From Eledone cirrhosa (taxonomy: Eukaryota): 64,000 nucleotides of DNA. The translations under genes and the position numbers were made by a program. Positions 46,191 to 49,451 of the stretch are shown here, piece after piece. Where the stretch lies: NCBI GenBank assembly GCA_964016885.1, contig OZ024748.1, positions 56,606,001 to 56,670,000 on the forward strand, given 5' to 3'. The notes under the pieces were generated by a model that saw only the letters and a program-made list of their open reading frames with translations, had not been told where the DNA came from and ran no database searches. Position 1 is the first letter of the stretch. Each line of letters begins with the position of its first letter.

Positions 46191-46555
46191 ATTCCAATAT
46201 CATTAATGCCATATACAACGAGTTATCATTAAGCTGTCTACACTAGAAGCTTCTTAGGTGGATTAGCTATTTGTTTTCTCACTATCAATATTTCAATTTA
46301 GAAATACATCTGTACTGAATTACCATATATATTTATGTTTTATATATATAATATATAAGTATGTGGCTACGTACATTTCCATCAGTCTATAGGTGTGAAG
46401 TTTATAATATCGTACCCAGACACAAACTGCATGGTACTGCATAGTTACCCCCACTCCCTCTCTTAAGAATATGTGTGTATGTATGTATGTATGTATGTAT
46501 GTGTGTATATATATATATGTATAAGTTATTCCGGGTTGAATCGGAGGTAACCACA

Positions 46556-46612
<57 letters not shown>

Positions 46613-46659
46613 GATAGATAGATGAGATTCTATAGGACTAGAACTGTTTCATTCTTTAG

Positions 46660-46708
46660 GATTCCTGATGATTTCTAAAGAATGAAACAGTTCTAATCCT
46701 GTAGAATC
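46660..46708 (+). ncRNA. Minimal type-I hammerhead ribozyme, intact core
   Basis: gattc-CTGATGA-tttctaaagaat-GAAA-cag-ttctaatc-ct-GTA-gaatc; stem I gattc/gaatc, stem III cag/ctg, predicted cut after 46703. Confidence 0.8.
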
Positions 46709-46796
46709 TCATCTATATTAAAACTTTTATACTCTGCTATGTATTGAGTACCTTATTTACTGTGGTTACCTCCGATTCAACCCGGAATAATTTACC

Positions 46797-46827
<31 letters not shown>

Positions 46828-46847
46828 AACTCTGCTTAAAGGGATAG

Positions 46848-46944
46848 AGACGTAGTTGAAGAACTTGCGATTTCAGTGTTAAGTTCGATCATCGCATCGA
46901 TCGTGGCTCGAGATGGTCGCCAGAGAAACGATTGTAATATGTCT
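46848..46944 (+). ncRNA. Degenerate hammerhead-like motif
   Basis: agacgtag-TTGAAGA-[aactt/aagtt and cgatcatc/gatggtcg hairpins]-GAAAC-gatt-GTA-atatgtct. Confidence 0.45.
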
Positions 46945-47054
46945 AATAAATTCTAATTCGTCGCACCACTGATTCTCCGTTTCTGTAAGAGCATCGATTG
47001 CTCAAACAGCATACCGCTTACGGACGCTTTAACCATCTCCCACCATATATATAC

Positions 47055-47087
<33 letters not shown>

Positions 47088-47203
47088 TATATATATATAT
47101 ATTTATATATATATTTATATATATAACAAAGGAATTGTGGTAAGGAACAAGATGGACCATAACGCACCAGAGTACTCAATACTTAGGGTAATAGAGTGGA
47201 AAA

Positions 47204-47320
47204 TAGGAAAAAGTATGACCCCGACGGCAGAGCTCTAGCCGTTCCGACGGCTATTTCTGGAGTCCAGAAATAGCCGTCGGAACGGCTCGAGCTCTGCCGT
47301 CGGGGTCATACTGTTTCCTA
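47204..47320. repeat. 117-bp near-perfect palindrome (58-bp arms, 1-nt loop, 2 mismatches)
   Basis: taggaaaaagtatgaccccgacggcag...tctgga-g-tccaga...ctgccgtcggggtcatactgtttccta. Confidence 0.95.
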
Positions 47321-47439
47321 TATATATATATATATATATATGTTAAGTATTTCCGAAGAAAAGGCAATGGAAAAAAGAGTGTTCTATTTATAATACAAAA
47401 CTATTTAATTAGAAAGTGAACAACACAATATATAACTAC

Positions 47440-47505
47440 TCCATTACAAAAGGTTTTAGGGCTCTAGACAATATTAACAGACGTCTAGTTCGCTCATCAG
47501 AAGGA
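47440..47505 (-). ncRNA. Hammerhead-like motif inside a foldback module
   Basis: tcctt-CTGATGA-...tagac/gtcta...-aaaacc-tttt-GTA-atgga; the inverted arm (47516-47591) retains GAAAcc-ttt-gGTA. Confidence 0.55.
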
Positions 47506-48394
47506 AGGTTATAAATGTTAATATTGTCTAGGGTCCTGAAACCTTTGGTAATGGAATGGTTATATATTGTGTTGTTCATTTTTAATTAAATATATATATA
47601 TAGTTCATTTTCTAATTAAATATACATATATATATATATATTTATATATAAACATAGATCTGTGGGTGTGCGCGTGAGTATGTGTGCATGTGTGTATGTG
47701 TGTATGTGTTTGATTCTCTATATCTATGTGTGTATCAATGTACGTCTTTCTATTCATATATATATATATATACACTTCATTAAGCCGTCTGACTGAAGGT
47801 TATTTGTTGGTAGGTAACTTTAAATGTGACATCGTTTCCCATCAAAGTGTATGTACTCTTTATATATTTGCACATTCACGTTTGTTTCCATGTTTACGCG
47901 TACAACTCGGATTGATTCTCTACCATGTGTTTACAAAACACATTACATCCAGCACATTATTATAAATAAAATTAAGCCACATATGAAAACACTATAGTAC
48001 CTTAGTCTGCTGAATATATATTTAATCAGCGACACAGAACTATAATTTATATATACATATTAGCATTGAAACGCATAGCGTATATAATTTTGTGAAAAAC
48101 AAATCTTTTAGTTTTCAGAATAAGAAATATTTTGAAGCGAAATAATATAGACATAGTTAAAATGGCATTCAATAAACTCTTTCATTAGGCCACAATACAA
48201 ATATATATATGTATATGTACGTATCTTTGTGTGTGTTTGTGTGTGTATCCGTATGTGGTTGTCGGATGAGACATAAATGAGTACTCAAAACCGAAGTAGA
48301 GTTTTAATATTCATTTGTTATTAAGACTAAAATATTATGTTTGTTACTCTGGAGTTTCGCCTGTTTATGAGAGGGAAATCCGGCAAGAACGGAA

Positions 48395-48442
48395 CTTGTA
48401 TGATGACCCTGTGTTAAACAGGCAAAACTCCGGAGTAACAAG
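48395..48442 (+). ncRNA. Hammerhead-like motif with palindromic stem III
   Basis: cttgt-aTGATGA-c-cctgt-gttaa-acagg-c-aAAA-ctccgga-GTA-acaag; the inverted arm at 48341-48367 retains GAAA. Confidence 0.65.
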
Positions 48443-49451
48443 ATTCTCGTGTGTATACCGCAGAAGGTCATTTAAAGTTCAACGAGAAGAAGGATGTATT
48501 TTTCATCAACTGAATCAATGTCTATTTTAGTGCATAACTAGTCTTCAAATCAGAAATTAAGGCAAATCCTCAATCAGCTAAGAAACGACGTATAACATCA
48601 AGAGCAAATTCTTGAATACCCATTACTGAATTTGACGGATGTCTTATACATATCTATTACAATTAACTGTGCTTTCCAAACCAAACAATGGGGAACATAT
48701 CTAATAAATATATATTTATATTTCAGGAAATACAGGAGGTAGTGATACACAGTACCACTAAAATCAAAAGAATTTGAAGCATAAACAACAAGTTATTTAA
48801 CGTAATGTCTCTCTCAAAAAAATCGTGTTGGACCTATTTTGTTCCATATCCTAAGATTTCCGTTTGTTACTAAGCAACAAATACATAAATATAGAAAACA
48901 TACTCAGAGAAATAGCATGTCAGTGGCTGAGAATCCGCGAACATGTTTACTAGCTTACTTCTCAGTATGGAAAAATGTCGGCCAATAGAGTTACACGTAC
49001 GACGCAGATTTTTTTAACTGGATGAGCACTGTGAAATGTAGATTGTTGGTCAAAAACACAACATGGGTCGGGAATCGAACTCAGGTAAATATCCTTCGAT
49101 GCCAAATACCGAAACAATGGAACAATGCACATTCTCAGCAAGTATATGGATTACTAGAGATAAAGCAATCAGTCATTTGTAATCTGCAAGTTTATGTCAG
49201 ACCGAAAACAAAATGCCTCTTCTCTTTTGTTTTATCTATTTATATATATATATTTTTTTAAAGTTACCTTTAAAAGTGTTGAGTTGACATTTCAATACAA
49301 AAAGTATCCCAGTCACAGCATACATATACGCGTGTGCGCGTGTACACGTGTGTGTGTGTGTACACGTGAATAAGGCACACGTTACCTACATGTGTTCAGT
49401 GCTCATTCAGTAAATGTTTTAATGTTATACTATGGTATTAAAATAAAACAT

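Follow-up and report, generated by a model that had tools for sequence, protein, structure and literature searches.

How did five short non-coding islands, unrelated in sequence and most of them folded back upon themselves, come to lie so close together in TA microsatellite DNA, and what are they? The question is raised by a stretch of 64,000 nucleotides of Eledone cirrhosa (positions 56,606,001 to 56,670,000 of contig OZ024748.1, assembly GCA_964016885.1; "the window" below), which comes from a 3.0-Gb genome with abundant TA microsatellites. The islands, which we name M1 to M5 from left to right, are short end-pieces (a hammerhead ribozyme region plus a tail) of five repeat families, three of which are linked to Penelope-like elements (PLEs). 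The cluster itself is ordinary repeat debris, probably from five independent insertions; the interest lies in a junction pattern that runs through the families, and from which we propose a mechanism for the inverted ends of these elements.

A preliminary description of the sequence had placed the five non-coding islands correctly, and it was also right about the TA spacers, the unrelated primary sequences (save a short tail motif common to M1, M3 and M5) and the inverted arms, which match at 36/38 nt in M1, 57/59 in M3, 60/67 in M4 and 25/27 in M5 (counted in the aligned stretch). M1 to M4 form four units in 1.1 kb, divided by (TA)n at 46797-46823, 47045-47125 and 47321-47341. M5, which had been counted as part of this stack, stands outside it, ~630 bp further on, with ordinary flanking DNA between. 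We found no inverted arm in M2, and the short arm of M1 lacks 10 nt beside its centre that are present in most copies of the family.

All five modules belong to repeat families, as had been expected of them. A first look gave 2379 candidates for M1, 2040 for M2, 4086 for M3, 1978 for M4 and 1061 for M5, of which 40 per family were scored. Identity to the nearest relatives differs widely (92-97% for M1, 90-95% for M3, 80-93% for M2, 81-89% for M4 and 75-84% for M5), so that the five copies likely arrived at different times. In two public sequencing runs the modules are far deeper than their flanks, a depth that is not to be read as a copy number.

The origin of these families is best seen in their longer copies, where reverse transcriptase (RT) and endonuclease (EN) were recognised from motifs and tblastn; Pfam gave no family for the EN piece of the window or for the 785-aa protein of a young family described below. 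A pattern search for M1 copies without the usual inverted arm found 12 places, including one (L197) that begins with TA and an inverted M1 with its tail, placed head to head with a truncated open reading frame (ORF) for RT and a GIY-YIG EN, and continues through an untranslated region (UTR) of ~2.5 kb to an M1 ribozyme ending at the short end, and TA. Ten of the 30 loci found by the ORF end of this copy (itself included) have an inverted M1 arm upstream, and ORF-bearing copies are flanked by M1 ends with arms of many lengths. M3 follows an RT/EN ORF in all four long loci fetched (L336-L339) and M2 follows a GIY-YIG ORF in one of four (L228). By contrast with these three families, M4 showed no same-strand ORF in 33 upstream stretches, and M5 only a doubtful one in 1 of 11, lying 3.7 kb off with other repeats between; one M4 tail piece stands head to head with an EN ORF (L409). 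The PLE origin suggested earlier for the whole cluster is thus almost certain for M1, M2 and M3, which are physically joined to RT and/or GIY-YIG sequences, and we consider it very probable for M4 and M5, where no ORF link emerged.

The parents of M1 to M3 also carry the motifs of a known group. Hydra-clade PLEs are characterised by (TA)n targets, type-I hammerheads and the diagnostics CxCX5C, CxxC and CxH (PMC8557442). Eighteen of 30 loci of the M1 parent have the CxCX5C linker, as do L228 and the set L336-L339, and CxxC precedes the conserved E in all three parents; CxH was matched in the parent loci of M1 and M3 and not in L228. On these motifs we would place the three parents in the Hydra clade. 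The RWK and DKT motifs of the RT N-terminus both occur in the young family (L181); neither was matched in the parent copies of M1 to M3, which are truncated or broken and share 40-53% identity with L181 in their N-terminal pieces.

This very young PLE family is itself represented in the window, by a head-to-head copy at 10419-12071 that consists of an inverted arm with a tail of ~110 nt, a truncated EN ORF (11475-11801, minus strand), a TA-rich UTR, a hammerhead-like core and a short end. The genome holds at least 150 identical copies of the EN piece, and several copies (L181-L184) have open frames of 785 aa in which motifs of the Hydra clade are present. We considered the EN fragment at 11475-11801 as a possible part of the M1-M5 families and rejected it, as it belongs to a different PLE family. 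One young copy has as its immediate neighbour a head-to-head palindrome of 700 bp that belongs to a further family (L182:303-1007), with a small hammerhead, palindromic CUAG at helix III, on both arms.

The preference for TA runs holds well beyond this locus. With 30 copies per family, those without the end motif left out, the tail end is followed by (TA)3 in 28/29 copies of M1, 13/13 of M2, 25/26 of M3, 11/21 of M4 (20/21 if CA/TG is counted too) and 10/16 of M5, far above the 980/7500 (13%) found at random flank positions. Does the stack then mark a special place, into which elements inserted again and again, as had been proposed? We think not. A neighbour from the five families lies within 100 bp at 19 of 145 other loci, and in 13 of these it is of another family; neighbour density is 0.066 per 100 bp and side within 100 bp and 0.010-0.022 further out. 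Stacking is therefore a genome-wide tendency, about five-fold, under which a stack of four units is uncommon yet needs no special locus, and the differing ages of the copies likewise speak against a landing pad. The stronger version of the idea, that the cluster is a selected functional locus (a source of hairpin small RNAs or a dedicated landing pad), could appeal to the crowding of four units in 1.1 kb, when the rest of the 64-kb window holds one decayed M1-like piece, and to the long hairpins, which weakly match microRNA (miRNA) models. We regard it as hardly credible: stacking recurs elsewhere, catalytic positions are mutated in four of the five modules and their ages vary. A miRNA hairpin as such was rejected for the same reasons, every model score lying below the gathering score.

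The hammerheads call for a more divided judgement. The preliminary description saw four folds of the form CUGANGA...GAAA...NUH, which is true of the families and untrue of the copies in the window, where M1 alone is intact. Exact CTGANGA cores number only two within 46400-48600. A strict type-I descriptor demanding a paired 10.1-11.1 position gave no match; once it tolerated a mismatched basal pair in helix II and a greater length of that helix, M1 was the sole pass of five, with 1, 2, 1, 1 and 0 passes per 1000 dinucleotide shuffles of M1 to M5. M2 has C3 changed to U, M4 has AAAA for GAAA, M5 is damaged in both arms, and M3 is without the first core strand. At 30 loci per family the descriptor passes 24 times for M1, 18 for M2, 19 for M4, 7 for M5 and never for M3, in a scan that took in 250 nt of flank, so that at least one M2 and at least one M5 match come from neighbours. 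Judged from these family sequences M2, M4 and M5 are decayed copies of family hammerheads; at the mutated M4 position, 47457, nearly all contigs of the public runs have the family letter. M3 is a different case: in the parent, 15 of 20 long copies show a U3-A8 core, helix II measures ~55 nt, the three-way fold is the minimum-energy structure in two of three folded, and the short M3 foldbacks start inside this long helix. With a helix II of 62 nt in M2 and 36 nt in M4 as well, the word "minimal", applied earlier to these ribozymes, fits them poorly. Rfam, applied to the window with its gathering score and to the region with E<=10, reported no hammerhead, and its sub-threshold matches were miRNA-type hairpins only; the families thus contain hammerhead variants which Rfam missed here. 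Outside the cluster, a second type-I hammerhead-like motif passes the descriptor at 60333-60390 of the window (core at 60337, helix III UGAUCA).

Among M1 subfamilies stem I shows a double change from A-U to C-G, and loop II varies with its stem kept, which points to selection on the ribozyme fold in the source elements. Of the copies in the window, which are probably inert relics, only M1 could still self-cleave, and there the foldback would form in competition with the ribozyme. The foldback has a further consequence, in that the mismatch at the M1 centre leaves a complete stem I on just one arm (in the commonest centre forms, 42 arms have six stem I pairs and 47 have two). In about half of the M1 copies, accordingly, it is the tail arm that carries the intact ribozyme; in the others the ribozyme lies on the opposite strand.

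Could such units be non-LTR retrozymes, small circular RNAs made from tandem hammerheads and re-inserted, as had also been suggested? Type-I hammerheads are present, a preprint (10.64898/2026.07.22.740005) derives animal retrozymes from PLE pseudo-LTRs (pLTRs), and contigs of the two public runs join the M1 ribozyme region (46660-46728) head to tail with a period of ~78 nt, each join leading from the short end to a point 9-14 nt before the ribozyme; these joins may be partial tandems or retrozyme-like arrays. They are known from the public contigs only: no head-to-tail tandem with complete ribozymes occurs in the window or in the fetched loci, and in no fetched locus do two same-strand hammerheads lie less than 300 nt apart without a TA run between. 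The units are, moreover, joined head to head and none has more than one complete ribozyme, those of M3 are without half the core, and copies read uncut through the cleavage site. We consider this origin very improbable. A foldback DNA transposon or miniature inverted-repeat element (MITE) was rejected too, the arms being internal and unequal and the partners RT elements; target duplications are unreadable inside TA runs.

If the modules are ends of PLEs, the remaining problem is how two ends became joined head to head. The tail motif is found within 110 nt on exactly one arm in 51/55 M1 and 38/40 M3 units, and on both arms in none, the arrangement of an inverted 5'-truncated copy with a tail at one end. 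Short arms of M1 stop within ~15 nt of each other, at TA-like points. The exact M1 centre occurs 490 times genome-wide, and among the first 100 listed its unpaired central base, read towards the tail, divides evenly between T and A (50 each, counted by hand), both orientations being present inside each M1 subfamily. M3 centres are more varied, with 25 forms among 38 units, which argues that junctions are made anew.

This variability bears directly on one possible explanation, that each family is a non-autonomous mini-element whose master copies are transcribed across the entire foldback, the product being put back into the genome as a unit by a PLE protein. An identical centre in hundreds of copies and the concordance of the arms are what it would predict, and two changes confined to the M3 short arm each recur in 4/28 copies; these recurrences were seen, however, among copies that had been selected because they resemble the one in the window. 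The two orientations within each M1 subfamily, the many forms of the M3 centre, the M1 arm differences, which hardly recur, and the same ends flanking ORF-bearing copies with arms of many lengths are all difficult to reconcile with it, and we think it improbable.

A second pattern concerns where the arms begin. In parent-type sequence of M1, M3 and M5 the mirror centre falls on the A of a YYANWYY initiator (Inr) with a TATA-like word 25-36 nt upstream, the usual spacing of TATA box and initiator; the box is present at -25 to -36 in 9/10 M1, 12/15 M3 and 4/6 M5 parent-type arms. Such combined sites are rare: one in 1004 positions of the M1 parent 3' region, which is the hotspot, two in 854 positions of the M3 parent, one of them the hotspot, and one in 714 positions of the unrelated young family, at the start of its hammerhead. 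Where arms stop at the initiator A, a G precedes it in 10/23 M5 and 29/49 M3 cases, the parent having T, and an extra base is found on both arms of some centres. In general, an extra G at the start of a transcript copy marks a copied cap.

From these observations we propose, as the reading we moderately favour, that the junction is a paired run-off: two cDNAs copied from the capped 5' end of an RNA anneal head to head within TA. The cDNAs would likely be primed from nicks on both strands of the TA run. Arm ends, together with in vitro work on another PLE, suggest that RT starts at two internal RNA sites, a distal start yielding the arm with the tail and a proximal one, ~70 nt upstream, the tail-less arm; the protein of that PLE nicks and extends both strands, with two internal starts that bracket the tail, uncleaved RNA is its main template, and it is predicted to be a dimer (PMC11167929). 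Were the RNA to start from the initiator at or inside the hammerhead, the run-off cDNAs would be just 60-250 nt long and would often end in a C derived from the cap. A short quasi-palindrome, GGA-N-TCC in M1 and M3, might then let the two 3' ends pair with each other, its central mismatch being resolved either way. A cDNA that instead jumped to the 3' end of an RNA would continue into the 3' UTR and the ORF, giving the long copies with an inverted end. The insertion leaves TA on both sides, beside which later insertions can stack, as they tend to do. In its full form, in which a dimeric ribonucleoprotein primes both TA strands, two cap-copying strong-stop cDNAs anneal at their 3' ends, the ORF is acquired by a retrovirus-like jump, and the whole is the missing step of Penelope transposition, the proposal is more tentative, and we would give it somewhat less than an even chance. 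If true, pLTRs, inverted heads and the one-sided tail would be explained by one mechanism, without a separate step of second-strand synthesis.

The main competitor shares the same PLE origin. The inverted arm would arise by self-priming, the 3' end of a cDNA (or of an antisense-RNA copy) folding back and copying itself, and the central base would be randomised later by template switching in the palindrome. Antisense-RNA copying and self-priming have already been put forward in print for PLE palindromes (PMC3846280), and short quasi-palindromes do occur at the centres. The two arms of a unit, besides, come from the same source: they share the subfamily and some private variants, with five shared changes in one copy. 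The fold-back of a tail-bearing cDNA nevertheless predicts a single central orientation, not the equal numbers seen, and the later randomisation sits badly with the independent decay of the arms, which argues against frequent template switching: arm changes are mostly one-sided, and in M3 five are shared against 31 and 30 confined to one arm (28 copies, picked for their resemblance to the window copy). Another difficulty is the additional base that some centres carry on each arm. In L197 and in the window copy at 10419-12071, the tail-less arm has ORF sequence absent from the tail arm, which in turn has sequence absent from the tail-less one, so that neither was copied from the other. Finally, one locus (L273, near 1400-1560) joins arms of M5 and M4 head to head without TA between them, the sole hybrid of these two families among the loci fetched up to then; it is either a two-family hybrid or a nested insertion. 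We judge self-priming unlikely.

Several observations weigh against the paired run-off nonetheless, and the concordance of the arms is the strongest of them. The short arm shares the subfamily variant of the tail arm in 14/15 and 5/5 alignable M1 copies, picked on the tail arm alone (5/20 and 2/7, or 7/27 in total, were left out for indels), although the first of the two variants is carried by only about a third of the listed copies. Snap-back explains this more simply, and two cDNAs can do so only if both RNAs came from one source element in each event. One M1 locus, listed twice, has an apparent tail on each arm. A frequent 5' end of M2 is without TATA and initiator, and M4 centres are scattered. 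The list of TATA words was picked after M1, M3 and M5 had been inspected, which makes the young family the only independent check of the TATA/initiator pattern. For part of the M3 cases the additional G may be the base with which the other arm begins, and a tail directly before the start of an ORF was seen in the unrelated young family only, not in the M1-M3 parents.

The features of the cluster are collected below.

Table. Features of the M1-M5 cluster (positions in the window)
Feature	Position	Strand	Basis and details
Detached inverted M1 tail-end piece	46526..46555	-	identical (30/30 nt) to reverse complement of 46761-46790; CA/TA run before M1
M1 short arm, inverted, tail-less	46622..46659	-	matches 46675-46712 (36/38 nt)
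M1 type-I hammerhead, intact	46659..46709	+	descriptor pass; 1/1000 shuffles
M1 ribozyme parts			stem I 46659-46664 / 46704-46709; CUGAUGA 46665-46671; stem II 46672-46683 (U.U first pair); GAAA 46684-46687; stem III 46688-46701; predicted cleavage after 46703
M1 tail, ~70 nt past short-arm end point	46726..46796	+	joined to (TA)n
(TA)n spacer	46797..46822	.	sequence
M2, single arm, end of PLE family	46823..47044	+	family copies; GIY-YIG ORF upstream in L228
M2 hammerhead			62-nt helix II; C3>U at 46856; GAAA 46925-46928; UA 46935-46936
(TA)n spacer	47045..47125	.	sequence
M3, 59-bp foldback + tail	47126..47320	-	parent core in 15/20 long copies; RT/EN ORFs in L336-L339
M3 parts			foldback 47203-47261 with 47263-47321, centre 47262; tail 47126-47202
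M3 hammerhead remnant			3' half only of U3-A8 hammerhead; GAAA>GGAA in both arms
(TA)n spacer	47321..47341	.	sequence
M4, foldback 47413-47479 with 47516-47582	47342..47590	-	tail towards 47342
M4 hammerhead			CUGAUGA 47500-47494; 36-nt helix II; GAAA>AAAA at 47457
M5, oldest-looking copy	48250..48445	-	tail arm minus strand, short arm plus strand
M5 short arm			damaged core 48400-48406; AAAA 48424-48427

The M2 tail region has, in addition, a 23-nt deletion. Elsewhere in the window there are the decayed M1-like foldback with its tail (27791-27953) and further short inverted repeats, possibly of other families of the same kind, at 12535-12722 and 24459-24512. A GC-rich LINE fragment at 43485-44899 has an RT C-terminus with a sub-threshold zf-RVT match, and 51973-52428 (minus strand) resembles another LINE end by eye. 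Away from the window, ~150 bp from an M5 copy, there is a long open frame with cadherin-like repeats (L059:3-1358; protocadherin-like by eye).

How much of this is new? Inverted pLTRs, tails, TA targeting, hammerheads in pLTRs and the U3-A8 variant have all been published before. Of the junction signatures and the paired run-off, the literature searched (which took in few subscription journals and neither Repbase nor Dfam) gave no account, and a description of the families or of the model may exist outside it. The origin of the tandem and inverted ends of PLEs has been called undefined (PMC8557442), and the steps that follow priming unvalidated (PMC11167929). Recently active Penelope families are reported from Octopus vulgaris (PMC13282606), in a paper whose main text, as available, does not contain "hammerhead", "palindrom" or "Hydra". 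What E. cirrhosa offers is hundreds to thousands of young copies with signatures that can be counted (the initiator centre, the extra G, the 50:50 mismatch and the single tail), and, in the same genome, a very young family with open frames of 785 aa, so that the model is directly testable. There is a practical side as well, since automated annotation could mistake such units for MITEs, SINEs or miRNA hairpins.

Of the systems known, the closest are the Hydra-clade PLEs, including Hydra-1_Obim (PMC8557442), which share with the elements described here the C-terminal GIY-YIG EN with CxCX5C, CxxC before the E and CxH after the N, the (TA)n targets, and a type-I hammerhead near the 3' end, in many of the listed ribozymes with a U.U pair closing helix II as in M1. 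Here, however, the ribozymes are unlike the motif listed for Hydra-1_Obim, M2, M3 and M4 have a far longer helix II, 3' UTRs measure 0.8-2.5 kb, tails are ~70-110 nt rather than 30-40, and a great many copies consist of no more than a paired end whose centre is fixed. An inverted 5'-truncated head, a palindrome at the junction, a tail at one end and TATA and Inr-like motifs have all been noted for PLE pLTRs (PMC3846280, PMC8557442), where self-priming or EN-mediated resolution is invoked and where, in the available text, there is no 50:50 centre, initiator run-off or extra G. Poseidon PAc of Anolis (PMC11167929) resembles our elements in its two internal RT starts bracketing the tail, the nicking and extension of both strands, the AT-rich target and the uncleaved RNA template; it belongs to another clade, and inverted junctions are not treated in that paper, where "inverted" appears a single time, of a blocking nucleotide. 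The hammerheads of PLEs surveyed earlier (PMC4209133) are, like those here, mostly single motifs from truncated elements, with close pairs on opposite strands and a U3-A8 core variant like that of the M3 parent; the minimal type of that survey is without helix III, whereas M1, M3, M4 and M5 have a helix III of 2-5 bp. Non-LTR retrozymes, lastly, are likewise small, non-coding, hammerhead-bearing and related to PLEs, but theirs are head-to-tail tandems with at least two complete ribozymes, and the units of E. cirrhosa stand head to head.

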